From a virus (taxonomy: Duplodnaviria > Heunggongvirae > Uroviricota > Caudoviricetes), in IMG/VR virus record IMGVR_UViG_2534681604_000010, positions 1-37,320 of that record: 37,320 nt of DNA, one strand, 5' to 3'. The position numbers were made by a program, and so were the translations under genes. Under the pieces are notes generated by a model. It was not told the origin of the DNA. It saw only the letters and a list, made by a program, of their open reading frames with translations, and did no database searches. How positions within the stretch are numbered: position 1 is the first letter of the stretch; the number at the start of each line of letters is the position of its first letter. Shown piece by piece: positions 2,580-28,548 of this stretch.

Positions 2580-2798
2580 TCAAAGAGAGAGCGCCACCTG
2601 TCCTGATTTCATTGGATGCGGCTGAACCGGATTTGACTCTTTTGGCGTTGCAATCGAACGAACAAAAGTTTCATGGGTAACAAAAGTATGGCTGCAGTTA
2701 ATGTTCTGGCACTGGTTGTAACGCTCTTTGGTCAATGAAGATACCTGAAAACTGCTGCGAGTATGGGCGGCACTTCCACACAGTGGGCAAATCATCAT
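2580..2798 (-). CDS. ogr: Ogr/Delta-family zinc-finger late transcription activator (P2 Ogr / 186 B)
   Basis: 72 aa from the internal Met: MMICPLCGSAAHTRSS...KERYNQCQNINCSHTF, carrying the CxxC...CxxxxC motif typical of Ogr; located just past gene D as in P2. Confidence 0.85.
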   Translation of the reverse strand: MMICPLCGSAAHTRSSFQVSSLTKERYNQCQNINCSHTFVTHETFVRSIATPKESNPVQPHPMKSGQVALSL

Positions 2799-2888
2799 TT
2801 TTCGAGTTCTCCCCATTTTTGCTAAATTCACAATAATGATACCGCATTATTCCATTTTGCAAACTTAAAAGTTCTCCATTGCGAAGAA

Positions 2889-3989
2889 TCATTCCATTTC
2901 GAAATCATCAATCCTCACTTCAAGCTCCAGACTGGTTGTAAAACCGTTATCGGGGCTGACGGTATGCGTCAGAGTCGTAATGGTCCATTCCGCATCATCT
3001 ATCGGCTGTTTAAAGCCACTGACTTTCACTGGCATTTCCGTGTAGAGATCTGCCCGACCTTCTGCCAGTTGTAGCGAGAATGACGCAACGCCGCGTTGCA
3101 GGCGTTCCCACTGCATTTTCGCCGCCCGTTCGGCGTTGCTCCGGTTGGCATAGGTGCGATTAAGTACCAGCACGTTTTCATCTGTACCCACCAGGTAATC
3201 GCCCTGCTTCGCTTCCGGCTCTTTCTTCTGCTTCTTAGTCCTGCGCTTACGCTTCACCGTGGTGCTTTCATTCTTCGCGGGTTCGCGGGTATGCAACCAG
3301 CTGGCAATTACGCCCGTGTAGGCTCCGCGATCTGCCAGGGTAAAGCGGTGACTGTCGCCGTCCTTACGTGTGATAGTGATAACCGGTAGTGGTTTACCGC
3401 TGGCGCTTTTACCCTGTCCCTGCCGGATGAATAACAGATTGCCATTTTTCACCGACGCAATAGCACCGTACTGGCGCGCCAGCCGCATCAGAAAACTGCC
3501 GTCACTCTCATTGGTCTGGTCTATATGTTCCACGGGTTTATCTGACAGGTCTTTACCCAATGCCATCTTCAGTTTGTGCCGCACAGCTATTTCCTTCACC
3601 ACTTCCCCGACGGTGGTCTTGTGCCACGACTTTTCACGGCGGGTATTCAGCGTTTCACGAAAATCAGCACTTCGCGCCCGGATAGTCAGGCGGTCCGGTG
3701 CGCCAGTGTGTTCAATCTCGTCCACCGTGAATGCCCCTTTCGGGAAAAGCGGCTGCCCCTTCCAGCCCAGCGCCAGCGTAATAACCGCACCACGGCGCGG
3801 CAGCACGATTTTTCCGTCGGCGTCGTCCAGCTCCAGATCAAGCTGGTCCGCTTCAAAGCCCCGATTGTCCGTCAGCGTCAAACTCATCAGGCGGTTATCC
3901 AGCACAGTGGTGATATCCCTGCCCTCAATACTGATGCTGAATGCGGGAGTTTTGTTGCCTTTGTTAAGCAGTTCAGAGCTGAAATTCAT
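2889..3989 (-). CDS. D: Tail protein gpD (late control gene D)
   Basis: 366-aa ORF; position at the end of the tail operon, overlapping the U stop; P2 gpD-like sequence. Confidence 0.85.
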   Translation of the reverse strand: MNFSSELLNKGNKTPAFSISIEGRDITTVLDNRLMSLTLTDNRGFEADQLDLELDDADGKIVLPRRGAVITLALGWKGQPLFPKGAFTVDEIEHTGAPDRLTIRARSADFRETLNTRREKSWHKTTVGEVVKEIAVRHKLKMALGKDLSDKPVEHIDQTNESDGSFLMRLARQYGAIASVKNGNLLFIRQGQGKSASGKPLPVITITRKDGDSHRFTLADRGAYTGVIASWLHTREPAKNESTTVKRKRRTKKQKKEPEAKQGDYLVGTDENVLVLNRTYANRSNAERAAKMQWERLQRGVASFSLQLAEGRADLYTEMPVKVSGFKQPIDDAEWTITTLTHTVSPDNGFTTSLELEVRIDDFEME

Positions 3990-9726: not shown

Positions 9727-9868
9727 AGTGGCGAACCTCCTGATTGGATTAGGCTTCGCCCTATGTTGAAGTGATTGTGCCTGACAAACAGCTAAGCGCA
9801 GTTGTGTCGTTATTCACACAAAATAACGGTATTTGTCTGCTTGCAGGGATAATCAACATAATGCTGAT

Positions 9869-10441
9869 TCAGGGGGATTCATTGATCTTATTTGCCGGAA
9901 ATTTTCTATAAATGGTAGAAACGCCTACATCAAAAATCAGTGCAATACGCTGTATTGATTCTCCGGCCTCGAGTAAACGCCCAATCTGTGCCCACTGTTC
10001 GGTGGTCAACTTAGGACGGCGTCCACCTACTCTGCCTTTGGCACGAGCTGCAGCCAGCCCTGCCCTGGTACGTTCAACTATCAGTTCGCGTTCCATTTCA
10101 GCCAGGGCACCCATGACATGAAAAAAGAAACGGCCCATTGGGGTACTGGTATCAATACTGTCAGTCAGGCTTCTGAAATTCACACCACGCTGGCGCAACT
10201 CTTCTATCAGCGTAACAAGATGCCGCATACTGCGCCCCAACCTGTCCAGCTTCCAGACAACCAGCGTGTCTCCTGCCGATAGTGTCCTGAGCAGTTTTTT
10301 CAACCCTAGTCTGTCGGACTTAGTGCCACTGATTTTATCCTCAAAAATCCGCTCACATCCCGCGCAGTTCAGTGCATTACGTTGCAAATCGGTGTTCTGG
10401 TCATTTGTTGACACGCGTACATAGCCAGTAAGCATGATCAT
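9869..10441 (-). CDS. Serine recombinase, DNA invertase of the Hin/Gin/Pin/Cin family
   Basis: N-terminus GYVRVSTNDQNTDLQRNAL with catalytic Ser motif, central VVWKLDRLGRS, C-terminal HTH; very close to e14 Pin / Mu Gin as recalled. The true start may be the second Met at 10435. Confidence 0.9.
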   Translation of the reverse strand: MIMLTGYVRVSTNDQNTDLQRNALNCAGCERIFEDKISGTKSDRLGLKKLLRTLSAGDTLVVWKLDRLGRSMRHLVTLIEELRQRGVNFRSLTDSIDTSTPMGRFFFHVMGALAEMERELIVERTRAGLAAARAKGRVGGRRPKLTTEQWAQIGRLLEAGESIQRIALIFDVGVSTIYRKFPANKINESP

Positions 10442-10491
10442 CTCCTAGAATAAAAATCGGGGATGATGCCAGTTAGTCGTAATCGCTGCAT

Positions 10492-10517
10492 TTTCTTAAA
10501 TGTTGTTTGGGAGAGGA
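10492..10517 (+). other. Degenerate hix-like crossover site (relic) about 50 bp upstream of the invertase gene
   Basis: TTTTCTTAAATGTTGTTTGGGAGAGG resembles the site at 12409..12434 (outer half-site, TT core, inner GGTTTGGGAGAA) but has a 1-bp deletion in the inner half-site. Confidence 0.35.
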
Positions 10518-10713
10518 GGCGAAACTCGACGCTGCACACAGTGTATTTTTTTATAGATCTTGGGCTATATTCCCATTAATAGGCTGTAATAAGTTAAGAG
10601 TGCAATGGGAGCGTTGGAAGGGAGATATAACAAGCACTACGTATAATTGTGATTTCACGTTTCCTATGTCATTTCATGAACTTGTTTCGGCGTATATTCA
10701 AGCGCAGGTGTAA
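10507..10713 (+). pseudogene. Orphan promoterless tail-fibre C-terminal cassette (probable remnant)
   Basis: ORF opens with TTG GGA GAG (L-G-E) inside the relic crossover site, in the same register as the alternative fibre tip at 12426; only 68 aa and no Tfa gene follows. Confidence 0.3.
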
Positions 10714-11016
10714 TGGCATCTAATTATGATTATGTATTATCTTATAGAATTTTAAGAAAAGCTGTTTCAATCATCTAACTAACGAAACCCGTTGTTAATG
10801 CTCAGTTTTTTCCTTGTCGATATGCTGCTTTGTAGCTGACGTATGTTTACTTGGCTTGTAATATGTTTCTAATTAAACCCTGTAGAGATCTTGATCATTA
10901 CTCAGGAAAGAATAATAAGCGGTTAGTTAAAATTCCCGCTAAGGCTGCACTTTAAAATGACAACTTTAGCGGAGGATAAATTGTACTTACATGTGTAAAT
11001 TTTAGGCATTAATTGT

Positions 11017-11439
11017 TTAAACTTTAGTCTCTGGTGAAGAGTCTTTTTTGAAGCTATCATCCTCCTTCTTCCCAAACATGTAACCTAGAGATAACGTAAT
11101 AATTGGGGTGAAAACAGCCCAAGAATCTTTAACTATATTTAAAGCTGACTGTCCCCCATTACTGAAGACATCAATCACTAATAATGCTGCAACAATACAG
11201 GAATAAATAGTCAGTGAATACGTTATTACATGCCAAACAACACTGTTTTTAGCATCATCACCTTTACCTATTTTATCGGGAATGCTTTCCTCGCTTTTAT
11301 TTCTCACTCTTACTGGAATATCACCATCCTGATAATCACCTTTGGTTGATTTTTTGCTTCTTGACGAACTACCTGAGATAGAAAAAGAGCCACCCGCCTG
11401 CTCATACTGTTCATACTGTTCATACTGTTCATCAGACAT
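11017..11439 (-). CDS. Hypothetical membrane protein: acidic EQY-repeat N-terminus, two predicted TM helices
   Basis: 140-aa ORF in AT-rich DNA; MSDEQYEQYEQYEQ then hydrophobic stretches ITYSLTIYSCIVAALLVIDVF and AVFTPIITLSLGYMFG; no similarity to P2 core genes that I recognise. Confidence 0.5.
   Translation of the reverse strand: MSDEQYEQYEQYEQAGGSFSISGSSSRSKKSTKGDYQDGDIPVRVRNKSEESIPDKIGKGDDAKNSVVWHVITYSLTIYSCIVAALLVIDVFSNGGQSALNIVKDSWAVFTPIITLSLGYMFGKKEDDSFKKDSSPETKV
11401..11431. repeat. In-frame 9-bp tandem repeat (TCATACTGT, about 3.3 copies) encoding the EQY repeats
   Basis: Read directly from the sequence; unit is a multiple of 3 so copy-number change keeps the frame. Confidence 0.8.
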
Positions 11440-11442
11440 AAG

Positions 11443-11880
11443 TCATTCCCCATCCGCATCCAGAACTTCTTCTTTTGTAGCTATATTTACCGTCAACAGA
11501 ATAGCATCATTATTTTCAGATAATGATTGGGTGGCAAAGAATAAATAATAGTTAAAAGTTTTCTTTTCACCGTTATTTGGTTCTAGGGTTTGTTTAAAAA
11601 ATCTTGTCCGAGTACCATCGTTAACACCTGCATCAACATGGAAAAAATTGATAAGATTAATATTTAACCCATCTTTAATCGTAGTTTTTACTCGAGGGAC
11701 AACCTCACCTTTTTCGTCTTCTTTTTTATCAACATCAAACTTAAGTCTTAATTTAAAATCGCCATAAAATTCAACTTCAGGGTTAGCAGCAAGAACCACC
11801 AATGTTTGAGAAAATACGACATCCATCCCCGATATTTTAGTTTTAATTTGCTTTTTCATTTGCACGCTCTTTTTTTGCAT
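11443..11880 (-). CDS. Hypothetical soluble protein (Lys/Asp/Glu-rich), middle gene of the AT-rich cassette
   Basis: 145-aa ORF ending 3 nt before the next gene; no family recognised. Start may be an internal Met. Confidence 0.5.
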   Translation of the reverse strand: MQKKSVQMKKQIKTKISGMDVVFSQTLVVLAANPEVEFYGDFKLRLKFDVDKKEDEKGEVVPRVKTTIKDGLNINLINFFHVDAGVNDGTRTRFFKQTLEPNNGEKKTFNYYLFFATQSLSENNDAILLTVNIATKEEVLDADGE

Positions 11881-12136
11881 TCAGATTACTATGATCTGGG
11901 TTATCATTTAACTTATTCAACGAAGGGCTATTCATACAGATATAATAAGTAATAAATATAATTATTATTACAATAAAGCCAGACTTACACATGATTCTAT
12001 ACATAAACTTCCCTATATCTTTAAATACTGATGTGTCGATAAGGGAAGGGACGCGCCATAGGAATCGACCAAAGGCAAAAAGGAATAATGTAACCATTAC
12101 TCCACTTGCTATATATATATAAATTTTGATATCCAT
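11843..12136 (-). CDS. Hypothetical small membrane protein (two predicted TM helices), first gene of the AT-rich cassette
   Basis: 97-aa ORF with hydrophobic segments IYIYIASGVMVTLFLFAFGRFLW and GFIVIIIIFITYYICM; overlaps the next gene by 38 nt. Confidence 0.4.
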   Translation of the reverse strand: MDIKIYIYIASGVMVTLFLFAFGRFLWRVPSLIDTSVFKDIGKFMYRIMCKSGFIVIIIIFITYYICMNSPSLNKLNDNPDHSNLNAKKERANEKAN

Positions 12137-12408
12137 AAAAACCTTAAATTAGTTTTTCTATCCATCGCTTAATAAAAAAGGTTGAAATGATAAACTCTTC
12201 ATCTATTGACGCACTATTTAATATCATATTTTATAGAATATGTCGAGTATAGTTTTAACTTGGATTCGATATAACCACAGAACCATCGCCAACACCTAAA
12301 GATGTCGTCCATCCTTTGACGACTAAAACTTAACACTCAATATGAATGGTTGTTTTATATACAGCCGCACCGTTCGTAGCGCATTGGAAACGTAAGGTAA
12401 ACGCATTA

Positions 12409-12434
12409 CTCTCTTTAAGGTTGGTTTGGGAGAA
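12409..12434. other. 26-bp hix/gix-like crossover site, invertase-proximal end of the invertible tail-fibre segment
   Basis: CTCTCTTTAAGG-TT-GGTTTGGGAGAA; the inner half-site plus core is a perfect 14-bp inverted repeat of 14295..14308. Confidence 0.6.
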
Positions 12435-12773
12435 GCGGCTAAAAGGAATGTAGGGACAGGGGCGAATCAGATACCTGATATGGGTAGCTTCACGCTTTCT
12501 GTTTCAGGTACTGGATATCAAAAATTACCATCAGGTTTTATTCTTCAGTGGGGCTCAATCGGCGCACCAGGCATTGCACAGGATGTAGTAACCCATTTCC
12601 CGATTGCATTTCCAAACAGATGTCTGCGTGTTTTGGTCTCACAAGACTACACACCAGATAGCGGGGCTGTTGGTTATATTGCCTGTGCAGGTTTTAGTCC
12701 CGACCCGGTTAAATTTATATCCAGAGCCAGTACTCCTGGCCTCGGCGCTTCATTTTTAGCGTTAGGCTGTTAA
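12426..12773 (+). CDS. Alternative tail-fibre C-terminal segment (silent in this orientation)
   Basis: The frame is open from 12396 and has no ATG of its own; it begins inside the crossover site with codons G-L-G-E, identical to the codons at the crossover site within H, so inversion would fuse it in frame to the H constant region. Confidence 0.65.
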
Positions 12774-12794
12774 TTTAGCTATATGGAGTGAAAA

Positions 12795-13235
12795 ATGAAT
12801 TACATATATTCCGCGACTACAAACTCTTTCTATCCGCTGGAGATGAAAGAGGATTACACTCAAGCTGACTCATGGCCAGATGATGCTGTTGAAGTTGATG
12901 AGCAGGTGTATATTGAGTTTTCCGGATTACCGCCGAAAGGAAAAATCCGTATCGCTGGAGAAAATGGTTTTCCTGCATGGTCTGAAATTCCACCACCAAC
13001 ACATGAGGAACAGATTGCTGCAGCCGAACTGGAAAAGCAGCAATTGATTAATCAGGCCAACGATTATATGAACAGTAAACAATGGCCTGGTAAAGCGGCT
13101 ATTGGTCGTCTGAAAGGTGACGAACTGGCGCAATATAATTTGTGGCTGGATTACCTGGACGCACTGGAACTGGTCGATACTTCCGGTGCGCCAGATATTG
13201 AATGGCCTACGCCTCCGGCAGTTCAGGCCAGATGA
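12795..13235 (+). CDS. Tail fibre assembly protein, alternative copy (Tfa', U'-like)
   Basis: 146 aa; C-terminus ...LWLDYLDALELVDTSGAPDIEWPTPP parallels the C-terminus of the active Tfa; convergent with it, 29-bp overlap. Confidence 0.8.
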   Translation: MNYIYSATTNSFYPLEMKEDYTQADSWPDDAVEVDEQVYIEFSGLPPKGKIRIAGENGFPAWSEIPPPTHEEQIAAAELEKQQLINQANDYMNSKQWPGKAAIGRLKGDELAQYNLWLDYLDALELVDTSGAPDIEWPTPPAVQAR

Positions 13236-13809
13236 CATCCGGCGCGGTGCTGGTATCTGTTGCCGTCACCGCGTCAATGTAATCCAGCACAGCGTTAAGT
13301 CGGGTTGTTTCTGCCTGCGTCAGTTTACGTCCGGCCTGCAATTTCAGTTGAATCAGACTAATGGAAGCCATTGCAGTATCAATCAGTGACTGACGCTGTG
13401 CTTCTGCCGCGCCTACTGCGGCGCTATGCTGTGCCACAGTATCTGTTACCCATTTCTCACCATCCCATTCATCGTATGGCGTTAACGGGGCGATAGTGGT
13501 TGTATTTTCAGGATAATCACCCGGAGCTGTGATTTCTTTCGATTCTCCTGTTTCGGTGCTATAGATGATTTCACCGCGATGGTCTGGCACATATTCCCAT
13601 GAGTTTAAATCTGCCGAACGGCAGATTGCATAACCAGCCTTATGTGTGCCAGGGGAATCTAAACAGGAACATGCCGGAATGCCGACACCAACGGCAAGAT
13701 ATTCATTTGAAGTGGAAATATATTCCCGTGTTTCACCATCATAGTTATAAACGGTAACATCCCCTGCCTTTGTTGCAATGAGCTCACTATTTAATATTGC
13801 TTTATGCAT
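13207..13809 (-). CDS. G: Tail fibre assembly protein (gpG-like Tfa), currently expressed orientation
   Basis: 200 aa immediately downstream of H; conserved Tfa C-terminal motif ...LDYIDAVTATDTSTAPDVIWPELPEA. Confidence 0.85.
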   Translation of the reverse strand: MHKAILNSELIATKAGDVTVYNYDGETREYISTSNEYLAVGVGIPACSCLDSPGTHKAGYAICRSADLNSWEYVPDHRGEIIYSTETGESKEITAPGDYPENTTTIAPLTPYDEWDGEKWVTDTVAQHSAAVGAAEAQRQSLIDTAMASISLIQLKLQAGRKLTQAETTRLNAVLDYIDAVTATDTSTAPDVIWPELPEA

Positions 13810-15356
13810 CAGGCTGCCCTCACGATATAGTTAAATGCAATATTACGCGGACGCGTTTCTGAGGCTGCGGCACCTAAACCAGCCACTGATTGTTTATATG
13901 TTTTAAAGGTTCCATAATCCGGTGCTGGTAATCCGGCATCGTTTGTGTTTCCTCTTTTGATAATGTCAGTGCCACTATTTACCCAGCTTTCATCAAAATA
14001 GAAATTAATCGTTGCATCAGTCACAATCGTGGATCTTGACGGTAATCCATGAGCATGATCCTCCGTTGCATACCCCTGAATACTTAAAATAGAGCGACCT
14101 GTATCAATCCCCCGCCCGTCATCCCAGCCACGAATAAACTCACCACGTAAATCAGGCAATTTATTTGTCGGGTAAACTTTTGCCAGTTCCGGGTATTCTT
14201 CAGCAGAAAAAGCTGCACCATTGCATTTCAGCCAGCCTGTTGGCGGAGTGGCTGAAGGCCACGGAACAGGGACACCAACAGGTAATGCAGAGCCTTCTCC
14301 CAAACCAAGGTATGTGAGAAGACCAGCTACATCCTTTCCACTCAAATTAGTCAGCGTATTGTCCAGCGGTTGTTTACCTGCCAGCGCATTAAGCATTGTC
14401 GTGGCAAAGTTCGGATCATTCCCCAGCGCCGCCGCCAGTTCGTTCAATGTATCCAGTGCCGCAGGTGCAGAACCCACCATTCCTGCAATCGCCGATTTCA
14501 CAAAAGCCGTAGTGGCAATCTGTGTATTGTTGACCGACTGTGCCGCAGTAGGTGCTGTTGGCGTTCCGGTAAGTGCCGGACTCGACAGCGGCGCTTTCAG
14601 TGCCAGCGCATTATTAATAGTGGTACTGAATTTCGGGTCATTGTTAATGGCTGCGGCAATTTCTTTCAGTGTGTCCAGCATGGCTGGCGCACCGTTAATC
14701 AGAGCAGTAATAGCGGCCTGAACAAACTCTGTGGTCGCAATCCGAGTGGTGTTATTTCCTGCTGCAGGCGTCGGCGCTTTTGGTTCTCCGGTAAATGTCG
14801 GATTATGTTTCTGCGCATACTGGGTATGAGGATCTTGTGCGGCAATGTGGTTTCTCATCTGGTCATCCACATACAGCTTTAATTCCAGGACTTTATCATC
14901 CACGTATTTACGGGTTGCCAGCACTACAGCAGGGTCGATTTTCAGGATGATATTGTCCGTGCTGCTGGTAATCAGCACCATGCGCACGGTCTGGGTACGC
15001 CCGCTGCCTTCAGCCAGTTGCGGCTTATAGCTTTCCGGGCAGTTTCCCACGGCAATCAATGCCCCGGACTCATCAAACAGGCCCACTTCACGTATCCACC
15101 AACCGCCCTCGTTTTCAGGGATCACCTGTTCAGCAATAATCTGGCTACTGTTCTGCGGGTCGATATAAAGCATATTCAGCGCAGCCCGGCGTTTCTCATT
15201 TACCAGTGCCGTCTGCTTTGCGTCCGGCGTTGGCAATACTCCGCCGCCATCGCCCACCGCCATATGGGTAATTTTTAGCGGCACACCGAGCGCGGCGGCG
15301 CTGGCAAGTTTCGCCGCGCCAATATCCGTCAGCAGGGTATAAAATTTTGTGCTCAT
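13809..15356 (-). CDS. H: Tail fibre protein gpH (constant N-terminal part plus variable C-terminal part in current orientation)
   Basis: 515 aa; N-terminus MSTKFYTLLTDIGAAKLA... recalled as P2 H-like; contains a crossover site at 14295..14320. Confidence 0.9.
   Translation of the reverse strand: MSTKFYTLLTDIGAAKLASAAALGVPLKITHMAVGDGGGVLPTPDAKQTALVNEKRRAALNMLYIDPQNSSQIIAEQVIPENEGGWWIREVGLFDESGALIAVGNCPESYKPQLAEGSGRTQTVRMVLITSSTDNIILKIDPAVVLATRKYVDDKVLELKLYVDDQMRNHIAAQDPHTQYAQKHNPTFTGEPKAPTPAAGNNTTRIATTEFVQAAITALINGAPAMLDTLKEIAAAINNDPKFSTTINNALALKAPLSSPALTGTPTAPTAAQSVNNTQIATTAFVKSAIAGMVGSAPAALDTLNELAAALGNDPNFATTMLNALAGKQPLDNTLTNLSGKDVAGLLTYLGLGEGSALPVGVPVPWPSATPPTGWLKCNGAAFSAEEYPELAKVYPTNKLPDLRGEFIRGWDDGRGIDTGRSILSIQGYATEDHAHGLPSRSTIVTDATINFYFDESWVNSGTDIIKRGNTNDAGLPAPDYGTFKTYKQSVAGLGAAASETRPRNIAFNYIVRAA
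14295..14320. other. 26-bp hix/gix-like crossover site inside gene H (constant/variable junction)
   Basis: TTCTCCCAAACC-AA-GGTATGTGAGAA; on the H coding strand it encodes ...LLTYL-GLGE... Confidence 0.6.
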
Positions 15357-26600: not shown

Positions 26601-26620
26601 AAAGGTGCCCTGGCACCTTT
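26601..26620. terminator. Hairpin between convergent Q and the accessory membrane-protein gene (likely bidirectional terminator)
   Basis: AAAGGTGC-CCTG-GCACCTTT perfect 8-bp stem, flanked by T-rich sequence. Confidence 0.45.
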
Positions 26621-27305
26621 ATCTATTGCACCTTGGATTAAACTTCCCTTCCACATAATTTACAACCTCAACAAATTCGCTACCATTTACCTCTCTAAAG
26701 CTAAAAACCCCTTTGCCATCTACGCATTTCTTTAAAACAAAATTTCCGTTATATTCTCCAACTACTATTTTTCCATCCAAGGTTTTCCATAGAACAGATG
26801 CAAACTGATTATGATAATTAATCCCTCCAAGAAAACTAGTAACTGACATAAAGAAAACCGTTAATATGGCATATACGAAATCTATATTAATCAAATCACC
26901 ACTTCGTTCAAATGTTTTGCACAACGACATTACCACCAACCATGAACAAATACCAAAAAGACCACCATTAAGATAGTTAACTAAGTCTTTTTCCCCCCTC
27001 TTAAAACTTAAAAAAACTGAAAATATTGTTATGGCAATAAAAATCCAAAGAACATACTTAATTTTATTAAGTTTAATCGCACCATCATTCAAAATAAAAT
27101 TAAAAACACCTATAATAATACTACCAAAATAGAAAAAAAGCTTTAAAGAAATATTCGCAACACTCGTTAAATCTAATGATATAAGTATTGCTGGATAACC
27201 AAAATAAACGGCCTCACCAAGTTTAAAAAAATATGCCAATATAAATAGCAACACCGTCAGTATTGTTACCAATGGAAAATCAAAGTTATTATTAAATTTA
27301 ACCAT
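26619..27305 (-). CDS. Hypothetical polytopic membrane protein (four to five predicted TM helices plus about 70-aa C-terminal soluble domain)
   Basis: 228-aa ORF in strongly AT-rich DNA between Q and cos; no family recognised. Confidence 0.55.
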   Translation of the reverse strand: MVKFNNNFDFPLVTILTVLLFILAYFFKLGEAVYFGYPAILISLDLTSVANISLKLFFYFGSIIIGVFNFILNDGAIKLNKIKYVLWIFIAITIFSVFLSFKRGEKDLVNYLNGGLFGICSWLVVMSLCKTFERSGDLINIDFVYAILTVFFMSVTSFLGGINYHNQFASVLWKTLDGKIVVGEYNGNFVLKKCVDGKGVFSFREVNGSEFVEVVNYVEGKFNPRCNR

Positions 27306-27360
27306 ACATTACAAGATTCCATTTTATTTTAATAGCGCCCACTTACGCAGACGCCCCATA

Positions 27361-27651
27361 TTATTCTTTAATAAGAGTACCCCAATCTACATCAGATTCT
27401 GCAACTACAATATTAATTGAACATTGTATGCACTCCTCACTTATTCTCGTATAAGTGAAATATCTAGTTTTAACAATACCACTAAACGAAGACCGACTAT
27501 TGTCATTACATATAGAGACAAAATCACCTACATTGGGAAGTAGAAGAAAAGGATTTTCTTCTGACGAACAGCCTACTATATCTCCGTCATCAATTGGTCT
27601 TGTGGACCCTTTAGGCAAGTATTGGTAATCATAGCTATATATCGTCTTCAT
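27361..27651 (-). CDS. Hypothetical small protein, upstream partner of the membrane protein
   Basis: 96-aa ORF, same strand, 55 bp upstream of 26619..27305; AT-rich. Confidence 0.45.
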   Translation of the reverse strand: MKTIYSYDYQYLPKGSTRPIDDGDIVGCSSEENPFLLLPNVGDFVSICNDNSRSSFSGIVKTRYFTYTRISEECIQCSINIVVAESDVDWGTLIKE

Positions 27652-27737
27652 AACCTATCATTTTCCATATCTAAAACTTCATAGAGGGACTAAATATCCT
27701 TCGCATTTTACATTTAGTCAATATTTTTCAATTCAAT

Positions 27738-27756
27738 CTGTTATGTCATCCCGCGC
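27738..27756. other. Candidate cos cohesive-end site
   Basis: Minus-strand GGCGTGGCGGGGATACGAG; the first 13 nt match the P2/186 cos end as I recall it (GGCG[A/T]GGCGGGGA); surrounded by GC-rich short repeats. Confidence 0.45.
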
Positions 27757-27936
27757 GCTCGTATCCCCGCCACGCCTGCCCGCTTTATGTAGCGGTTTTC
27801 ATGCGCCTGCATGACATAAGCAAAATCCCGCCACTCCTGGCGGGCCTCAGCTAAAACGATCCTCAAACGATCATGCGGATTCATGCGGCATAGACATGCA
27901 CAATCTCCAAAGCGGGCATCGAGACTTTTTGGAAAC

Positions 27937-28548
27937 CTACGTAACCACAGTTAATGTGTGCATCCTGTCTCGAATTGCATCACACGTCTCATCAAAAAGC
28001 TTGGTGATGGTTGTATGGTTCAACTCCGCCTCTTTCCAATAATTTTGCCCGTCAAATTCTGGATCGCTATGCTTAAACGATATTGACTCTGAAAGGCATT
28101 CCTTCCGGAAACGGTCCAAGATTATATAAACCTCTGGTGAGATGAACGGTTTGTTAGATTCAACACTTGTAACAAAAGTGTTAAATGCATCAGAAAAAAC
28201 TTTCAACCTTCTAAATTTTCTCTCTTCAAATGGTTCGTTGGGGTCAACATGATCCAGCGCAGGCCTCAGCTTAAGCACGCTTTCTCTGGTTTCAAACATC
28301 GAATTCCAAATGAGACTATATGCTGATAACTCCTTATCAAAATACGCTTTCGTTACATAAACAGAATTGTCTAACTTAGCCTTTATTCTTTCATTAGTTG
28401 CACTCAGTTGTGATTGAAATTCAGCAATATCTTTGTTTAGCCGCGACTTATATCTTTCTAAATAAACTTTCCCGATCCAAACAAATATGCCAGATGCAAC
28501 AAAAGACACCCCACCCAACGAAGCCAGAACTTTAAAGACTAAATCCAT
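27937..28548 (-). CDS. Hypothetical membrane-anchored protein (N-terminal TM helix, soluble C-terminal domain)
   Basis: 203-aa ORF; AT-rich; located between gene A and cos, the tin/old accessory position of P2. Confidence 0.55.
   Translation of the reverse strand: MDLVFKVLASLGGVSFVASGIFVWIGKVYLERYKSRLNKDIAEFQSQLSATNERIKAKLDNSVYVTKAYFDKELSAYSLIWNSMFETRESVLKLRPALDHVDPNEPFEERKFRRLKVFSDAFNTFVTSVESNKPFISPEVYIILDRFRKECLSESISFKHSDPEFDGQNYWKEAELNHTTITKLFDETCDAIRDRMHTLTVVT

Follow-up and report, generated by a model that had tools for sequence, protein, structure and literature searches.

The window analysed here, the whole 37,320-nucleotide stretch of IMG/VR record IMGVR_UViG_2534681604_000010, holds a complete P2-like prophage. 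This work concerns the region between its serine DNA invertase gene and the working invertase-side crossover site (site L) of its invertible tail-fibre segment. Next to the invertase start lie a 25-base-pair (bp) relic of a third crossover site and, fused to it, a fibre-tip pseudogene (called 'tipC' here); an AT-rich three-gene cassette and a further AT-rich stretch then separate this dead tip from site L (Table 1). The best explanation as a whole, which we consider likely, is that the relic derives from a multi-tip inversion array and that everything from its inner half to the outer half of site L is one block, moved from site to site at crossover sites.

Table 1. Features of the invertase-fibre region and their positions in the window (aa, amino acids; ORF, open reading frame; a full stop marks features given no strand)
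Feature	Position	Strand	Details
P2-like prophage, complete	whole window		minus-strand order V, W, J, I, H, invertible fibre segment, invertase, sheath, tube, E, tape-measure
Gin-family serine DNA invertase, 190 aa	9869..10441	-	Pfam Resolvase and HTH_7; ATG at 10441
Relic crossover site, 25 bp	10491..10515	+	TTTTCTTAAATG-TT-GTTTGGGAGAG
Relic, outer half	10491-10502		TTTTCTTAAATG
Relic, core	10503-10504		TT
Relic, shortened inner half	10505-10515		GTTTGGGAGAG
Site-bounded block, about 1.9 kb	10505..12422	.	relic inner half, dead tip, cassette, AT-rich leader, site L outer half and core
Gp53-like fibre tip pseudogene (tipC)	10507..10872	+	natural stop 10870-10872
68-aa ORF	10507-10713	+	first part of tipC
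tipC lesion 1	between 10678 and 10679		-1 frameshift
tipC lesion 2	10776-10778		premature TAA
tipC lesion 3	within run 10806-10811		extra T
tipC lesion 4	10837-10839		premature TGA
Core cassette, three genes	10924..12143	-	about 78% nucleotide identity to Klebsiella prophage and Serratia chromosome copies
140-aa protein	11017-11439	-	disordered N-terminus with repeats, two C-terminal transmembrane segments
138/145-aa protein	11443-11880	-	predicted all-beta
97-aa protein	11843-12136	-	two transmembrane segments
AT-rich stretch upstream of cassette	12144..12408	.	33.6% GC
Crossover site L, working, invertase-side	12409..12434	+	CTCTCTTTAAGG-TT-GGTTTGGGAGAA, 26 bp
Alternative tip, silent, Gp53-like	12426-12773	+	Pfam Gp53-like_C
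Assembly protein of silent tip	12795-13235	+	Pfam Caudo_TAP; tip and assembly protein together 12426..13235
Assembly protein of H	13207-13809	-	Pfam Caudo_TAP; together with H 13207..15356
Fibre gene H, expressed, Collar-domain tip	13809-15356	-	Pfam Phage_tail_fib, Collar
Crossover site R, within gene H	14295..14320	+	TTCTCCCAAACC-AA-GGTATGTGAGAA, 26 bp

The relic begins 50 bp from the invertase start codon. Positions 10494-10524 align with 12412-12443 with one 1-bp gap, at 12423, and the score of this alignment (32) exceeded those of all 2000 shuffles that served as the reference for significance (14.6 ± 2.2, maximum 26); it was also the top-scoring tile of the whole window. The 10-mer GTTTGGGAGA is present as three exact copies in 37 kb, compared to 0.07 expected by chance, and its positions are those of the three sites (10505, 12424 and, on the reverse strand, 14296). 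The alignment confirmed what the original prediction, made from the letters alone, had proposed: a degenerate third crossover site beside the invertase, with a 1-bp deletion in its inner half-site. The likeness to 12409..12434 had been extended to the outer flank; it holds for the site itself but is weaker in the flank, where about 18 of 27 bases are alike, below the reach of a stringent local alignment.

Sites L and R, which share a perfect inverted repeat of 15 nucleotides (R part at 14294-14308), agree in form with the 26-bp sites and the consensus published for E. coli prophage invertases, in which a staggered cut is made at the central dinucleotide (PMC4134206). The relic conforms to the half-site consensus (TTxTCxxAAACC-type) and is one base short of the 26 bp (two 12-bp half-sites and a 2-bp core) of a Gin/Cin/Pin/Hin-type site, the missing base sitting at the boundary of core and inner half. 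Its outer half differs by one base from the site of cassette-less relatives, while its inner half matches GGTTTGGGAGAA but for one substitution and the missing base. TTG at 10507 encodes leucine in the same L-G-E register as the TTG at 12426. In a diverged relative (L036) the relic has the full 26 bp, TTTTCTTAAACG-TT-TGTTTGGGAGAG; therefore, the window lineage lost one T and gained a C-to-T change at 10501. Loss of the T is predicted to shorten the half-site spacing. The relic is a genuine copy of a 26-bp Gin-type crossover site, fused in the L-G-E register to a tip, and both site and tip are almost certainly dead. The invertase itself is a close homologue of Mu Gin (residues 3-186 covered in the comparison with structure 3UJ3, E = 1.9e-89).

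The 68-aa ORF, in which the original prediction saw an orphan fibre tip in the L-G-E register, proved to be the N-terminal part of tipC. The frame of tipC is kept from L-G-E to ...FPMSFHE, where the first frameshift occurs, and with two frameshifts and two premature stops it holds no intact frame for a Gp53-like_C tip. Its homology was revealed solely by a DNA match to an Enterobacter phage: window positions 10522-10885 are 76% identical to tip 3 of Enterobacter hormaechei NZ_CP066556, a 'plasmid' that is a circular P2-like phage genome. Once repaired, tipC has 121 codons and is collinear with that tip without gaps (64% identity over 121 aa). The repaired tipC scored 19.4 bits and the Enterobacter homologue 42.9 bits against Pfam Gp53-like_C (PF21882, cut-off 24.9 bits), a domain that database relatives of tipC carry. 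The 68-aa ORF had no match in Pfam, PHROG or PADLOC, and BLASTP against the neighbouring 115-aa tip gave no alignment. Substitutions between tipC and the Enterobacter tip are skewed (59 GC-to-AT vs. 16 AT-to-GC). Just inside the dead tip, at 10529-10554, there is a terminator-like plus-strand hairpin followed by a T-run (ACGCTGCACACAGTGT then ATTTTTTTAT); the Enterobacter homologue has a GC-rich hairpin and then TTTTGT at the equivalent place.

Intact relatives of tipC are found in multi-tip loci. Beside the invertase of NZ_CP066556 there are three tandem direct units, each a crossover-like site followed by a short Gp53-like tip, and after them an assembly gene, an inverted tip and the fibre constant region. 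Two intact relatives are P0035 (122 aa, beginning RLGEAAK...) and P0036 (98 aa), and in P0040 the constant region of H is fused to a tipC-type tip, so the tip family is functional elsewhere. P0036 lies in an array (L034) that has no fewer than six crossover sites and no fewer than six Gp53-like tips, and in a related locus (L033) tips and sites are arranged differently; this is a Min-like multiple-inversion architecture. Because the intact relatives sit in such tandem multi-tip, multi-site arrays, we infer that tipC and its site descend from an array of the kind found in Enterobacter and E. coli phages. In the Enterobacter phage itself (L030, 5300-6350), tandem sites 2 and 3 are also 1 bp short (CGTT-GGGGAAG, CGTTTGG-AGAAG) and the frame of tip 3 does not match that of its site, so invertase-proximal array units may commonly decay. 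A further frameshifted tipC relative (L037, 150-530) is preceded by a crossover-like site, AATAAGG-TT-CGTTTGGGAGAG; it directly follows the end of an unannotated ORF, and an Abi_2-family gene comes next.

The original prediction also placed an AT-rich cassette between the relic and the functional site, and the core of this cassette was indeed located there. Composition is uniform over the block (34-37% GC), with 36.6% in the tip, 33.9% in the cassette and 33.6% in the leader, compared to 47% in the neighbouring tip and 50% in the invertase; the window as a whole has 50.5%.

We compared two phage backgrounds that carry the block, the window type and the L036 type. In the window type, the cassette-less relatives L001 and L002 align with the window over 9800-10524 and then again over 12412-12799, and both the relic and site L match one and the same 32 bp of L001 (2295-2326). 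In the L036 type, a Logan contig (strain accession SRR32337735), the order is the same (invertase, relic, dead tip, cassette, site L, tips). Identity between window and L036 was 62-82% over the invertase and upstream of it, climbed to 96-100% between about 10500 and about 12420, and dropped to 33-67% beyond (46-82% in the flanks of the block); the two backgrounds are approximately 70% identical in the invertase and less in the tips. At base resolution, they diverge left of GCATTTTCTTAAA and right of CTCTCTTTAAGG-TT. The cassette-less counterpart of L036 is a complete E. coli genome (L053, NZ_LR882997), to which L036 is 99.05% identical over 1-739 and 97.5% over 2625-3392, with 33 bp of L053 matching both ends. 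The single site of L053 reads TTTTCTTAAACG-TT-CAATTGGGAGAA. The left site of L036 joins the native outer half through TT to the block's TGTTTGGGAGAG, and its right site joins the block's CTCTCTTTAAGG through TT to the native CAATTGGGAGAA. Neither junction can therefore lie outside G-TT, a stretch that contains the 2-bp cleavage core, and the window is related to L001/L002 in the same way. In each background, the cassette-less relative differs by a clean indel, and the boundaries of the insert are at the cleavage core of the recombinase.

By this comparison, the block lies exactly at the TT core of the single invertase-proximal site of the relatives, the left and right sites being hybrids of native and block halves. 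As the block is approximately 99% identical and the backgrounds only about 70%, it is not ancestral to both, and at least one recent transfer ended at the crossover sites. We therefore regard it as very probably a transferred, site-bounded block. The invertase genes are too diverged for homologous recombination, which leaves two ways of making the left junction: site-specific recombination at the core, or short-homology recombination confined to the 13-17 bp of the shared outer half-site.

Relic activity was judged from approximately 30 independent assemblies. A relic recombined with site R would give the junction CTCTCCCAAAC-AA-GGTATGTGAGAA, and the 3.8-kb inversion between 10.5 and 14.3 kb would give CGCCTCCTCTCCCAAAC(A)AAGGTATGTGAGAA and TTCTTAAA(T/C)GTTGGTTTGGGAGAAGGCTCT. 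No recombined relic was found in any of them: in every case the invertase-side outer half stood before the tip start of the 10507 type, and no such start was fused to the fibre constant region. Scans with the tip-start motif returned parental configurations only (one IMG/VR contig and one metagenome contig). The relic and all of the tip lesions were unchanged in every window-type cassette-bearing locus examined. By contrast, the 12.4/14.3-kb (L/R) inversion was present in both orientations. Matched pairs with opposite orientation were L003 vs. L009 and L050; L015 and L051 vs. L048; L012, L016 and L045 vs. L043, L060 and L061; and L017 vs. L011 and L063, the recombinant configuration being carried by L009 and other loci. 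A polymorphism of the inner half (GGTTTAGG vs. GGTTTGGG) moves together with its tip, as core exchange predicts. With the relic unrearranged while the L/R inversion was seen in both states, the relic is very probably inactive at present. Of the three sites, only the L/R pair shows alternative arrangements, which falls short of a Min-like system with at least three active sites and more than two arrangements. Hin/Gin-family inversion needs two 26-bp sites and an enhancer inside the invertase gene (PMC3798978), and the L/R inversion evidently survived the displacement of site L to 1.9 kb from that gene.

We propose the following history. A moron would have landed downstream of an array-derived tip in a donor of lower GC content, and the whole site-to-site block would then have passed between phages by recombination at crossover sites, most likely by the invertase. 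The means could have been intermolecular exchange, the integration of an excised circle or, between co-resident prophages in opposite orientation, two inversions in succession; the last of these would give exactly this product by two canonical inversions, with no non-canonical reaction. In the window lineage, the left site would subsequently have decayed (C-to-T at 10501 and loss of one T), inactivating it and locking the cassette in place, so that fibre-tip switching would now be left to the 12.4/14.3-kb inversion only. Catalysis by the invertase is favoured, if by little, given that the junction falls exactly at the core and that the gene of the enzyme is 50 bp distant.

Several points weigh against this history. 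The outer half-site GCATTTTCTTAAA(C/T)GTT is common to both backgrounds, so the left junction could have been formed by short homology, and a sharp right junction can arise trivially by ordinary L/R inversion followed by exchange of the invertible segment. Deletion and fusion are strongly disfavoured by Gin-family invertases. The predicted circle junction, CTCTCTTTAAGGTT(T)GTTTGGGAGAGGAGG, which would mark an excised form, was not found in IMG/VR. Window and L036 are 96-98% identical in the dead tip and 99-100% in the cassette, and this gap could mean a second, separate exchange of the cassette. Finally, the comparison covered two backgrounds, and the inactivity of the relic is read from assemblies.

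In the alternative that survives best, the block would be a remnant of an ancestral array for whose spread ordinary or short-homology recombination, and not the invertase, was responsible, the conserved sites being mere islands of homology. The identity of the 13-17 bp outer half-site in both backgrounds, the frequency of mosaic junctions at crossover sites among cassette-bearing loci and the unequal divergence of tip and cassette, which hints at more than one exchange, would all fit. However, the homology available is below the usual RecA minimum, and an enzyme that cuts exactly at the junction is encoded 50 bp away. Moreover, L036 keeps its background-specific C two bases before the core (the equivalent of window position 10501), adjoining the first base of the block, and this narrows the junction to 3 bp, the cleavage core among them. 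We consider this alternative unlikely, though it deserves to be kept in mind.

The original prediction favoured an in-situ origin, in which the invertase-proximal site was duplicated locally and the cassette then entered, or replaced, the resident tip module. Direct-repeat sites do flank the insert, and 32 bp of the relatives' single site match both copies. The duplication was nevertheless not upheld: neither the relic's inner half nor site L's outer half has the native sequence, both being part of the AT-rich block, one foreign unit that runs from the former to the latter. The identical block recurs in a second background (L036, with L053 as its cassette-less counterpart), whose invertase shares just about 70% identity with that of the window and whose tips share less. 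Nor was an ancestral tip split by the cassette, since the tip runs at full length to its own stop and the cassette starts downstream of it. This makes an in-situ origin highly improbable.

Still less credible is a live third site, by which a three-tip system would use the 3.8-kb inversion to flip the cassette, a flip that the original prediction had thought conceivable, and to fuse the tip at 10507 to the fibre. The relic has the inverted orientation relative to site R that this needs, its outer half-site is nearer to the consensus than that of site L, and working multi-tip arrays of the same type exist. But it measures 25 bp instead of 26 bp, its recombinant junction was absent from the assemblies although both L/R states were common in them, and the lesions of the tip would in any case yield a truncated fusion. 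The larger inversion is not supported. A chance match in an intergenic region, for which only the shortness of the motif speaks, is practically dismissed by the alignment score and the GTTTGGGAGA count, by the adjoining 370 bp of homology to a real fibre tip and by a position equivalent to the single site of the relatives.

The cassette that would have been moved in this way was analysed for origin and function. Hundreds of contigs labelled Escherichia encode its 138-aa protein, and on all of them the gene sits in a P2-like prophage between invertible segment and invertase. Copies approximately 80% identical in protein are found in two settings (L018-L029): an unrelated Klebsiella prophage, next to its integrase, and the chromosome of Serratia marcescens, where the neighbours are an ArsP-family permease gene and a radical S-adenosylmethionine activase gene adjoining an NrdD-family reductase gene. 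DNA homology to these copies is limited to 10924-12143, and they lack flanking crossover-like sites, which makes the three-gene cassette an independently mobile moron. The cassette was not found in 5,426 complete E. coli genomes (megablast and blastn), nor by blastn in the phage collection or among one-genome-per-species contigs. The stretch 12144-12408, for which no homologue was found, is probably the leader and promoter region of the cassette. A promoter scan gave no more matches than in shuffled sequence. Searches with the local invertase, tips and assembly proteins (tblastn) against 10441-10930 and 12137-12425 gave nothing significant. We also considered the minus-strand peptide leaving site L as a mini-tip and rejected it, the core dinucleotide being wrongly oriented and the peptide lacking a homologue. 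Two draft contigs (L004, L005) terminate inside the cassette at window positions of about 11908-11917, away from the crossover sites.

None of the cassette proteins had a significant match in Pfam, PADLOC, PHROG or NCBIfam. With PADLOC models as the test of anti-phage defence, the sole match was a two-transmembrane effector model at E = 0.04, which does not qualify. The AlphaFold model of the 138-aa protein was of low confidence (predicted local distance difference test score 51). Col-type small plasmids (L041, 669-1408; L042, 1887-2626) encode a DUF6864 protein and then a membrane protein that shares 63% identity with the last 80 residues of the window's 140-aa protein, and this module may be a shorter relative of the cassette. 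Synteny and a weak BLASTP hit (E = 0.006) connect the 138-aa protein with DUF6864, whereas hhalign was unsupportive (E = 0.15); the possible link is only a lead. In two heavily deleted P2-like remnants (L055, L062), the three-gene cassette, the relic and the dead tip are all still intact. One of these remnants carries a resolvase-GpU fusion; the second has lost its invertase and has a truncated tape-measure gene. With low confidence, retention in decaying prophages and spread across genera suggest a membrane-acting role in lysogenic conversion or exclusion that benefits the host.

The N-terminal EQY repeats of the 140-aa protein are encoded by a 9-bp tandem repeat at 11398-11432 (CTGTTCATA, 3.9 copies). 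The spacing between relic and site L is 1895, 1904 or 1913 bp among relatives, steps of 9 bp that fit variation in the copy number of CTGTTCATA. In many genomes, the 140-aa gene is annotated merely as a 63-aa C-terminal fragment.

Outside the invertase region, positions 1-2400 of the window (the ybjL-ybjM chromosomal flank) are just 82% identical to all 5,419 matching complete E. coli genomes, so the host is not E. coli in the strict sense; proteins of the source assembly carry the Escherichia label. At 26619-28548, two minus-strand ORFs of 228 and 203 aa lie between the capsid/portal genes on one side and the replication gene A on the other, at the position of the P2 old/tin hotspot. Pfam gave no match for either, and both may be further cargo.

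The P2 G-FI moron hotspot is well known, as are invertible tail-fibre regions; the route by which cargo enters such hotspots is not, and a 2026 preprint on P2/P4 hotspots describes the recombination processes as still to be elucidated. Block boundaries at the 2-bp core in two backgrounds offer a concrete and testable route, transfer mediated by invertase sites, in which crossover sites probably served as cargo entry points. As a general rule, we suggest only tentatively that Gin-family sites near phage invertase genes act as site-specific docks for one-site blocks, where a block (outer half, TT, inner half) may be excised and inserted, or shuttled by paired inversions, at the cleavage core. 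If this is true, accessory genes could move between P2-like phages too diverged for homologous recombination, and the cargo would become fixed once one junction had decayed; the present case shows how the loss of one base can freeze transferred cargo. For annotation, short gp53-like ORFs near invertases can be the dead remnants of multi-tip arrays.

The locus resembles, and departs from, several known systems. The Mu G, P1 C and e14 P segments (with Gin, Cin and Pin) and the 2-3-kb segments of E. coli P2-like prophages (PMC4134206) have the same type of invertase and 26-bp sites. All these segments likewise fuse a constant 5' part of the fibre to alternative 3' tips with assembly proteins, and the 12.4/14.3-kb segment behaves in exactly this way. 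Unlike in them, the working invertase-side site of the window is 1.9 kb from the invertase gene and not approximately 50 bp, and at the ancestral position of that site there is now a decayed extra site with a dead tip, foreign cargo separating them from the working site. Min of plasmid p15B reportedly has six crossover sites, and shufflons, which use a tyrosine recombinase, are multiple-inversion systems as well (Sandmeier 1994; Komano 1999, cited in PMC4134206 and PMC9881135). Like the window, both have more than two crossover sites and promoterless tips each preceded by a site, and the intact relatives of the dead tip live in Min-like arrays (L030, L033, L034); in the window, however, the third unit is vestigial and no multi-site shuffling was seen. 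The relic is therefore a vestigial unit of a known kind, the multi-tip inversion array, which now forms the left end of a site-bounded cargo block. By analogy only, the block recalls integron gene cassettes: it would carry one recombination site if circularised, is promoter-independent and was inserted in different hosts at the recombinase's own crossover point. The recombinase of the window is, in contrast to that of integrons, a serine invertase normally restricted to inversion, and a circular form or repeated capture is only hypothetical. Position 2 of the P2 morons is the Z/fun hotspot between the tail-fibre gene G and the sheath gene FI (PMC3573123), where fibre swaps, defence-like cargo and DNA invertases are mixed (bioRxiv 10.1101/2024.10.15.618418). 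The window matches it in having AT-rich, autonomously oriented cargo between fibre genes and the sheath gene, its foreign, non-structural genes lying between the fibre segment and the invertase and sheath genes. It differs in that the cargo is nested between two crossover sites with boundaries at the core, an arrangement not described in either of these two sources. The new and testable point is this core-exact placement of the block boundaries in two phage backgrounds.

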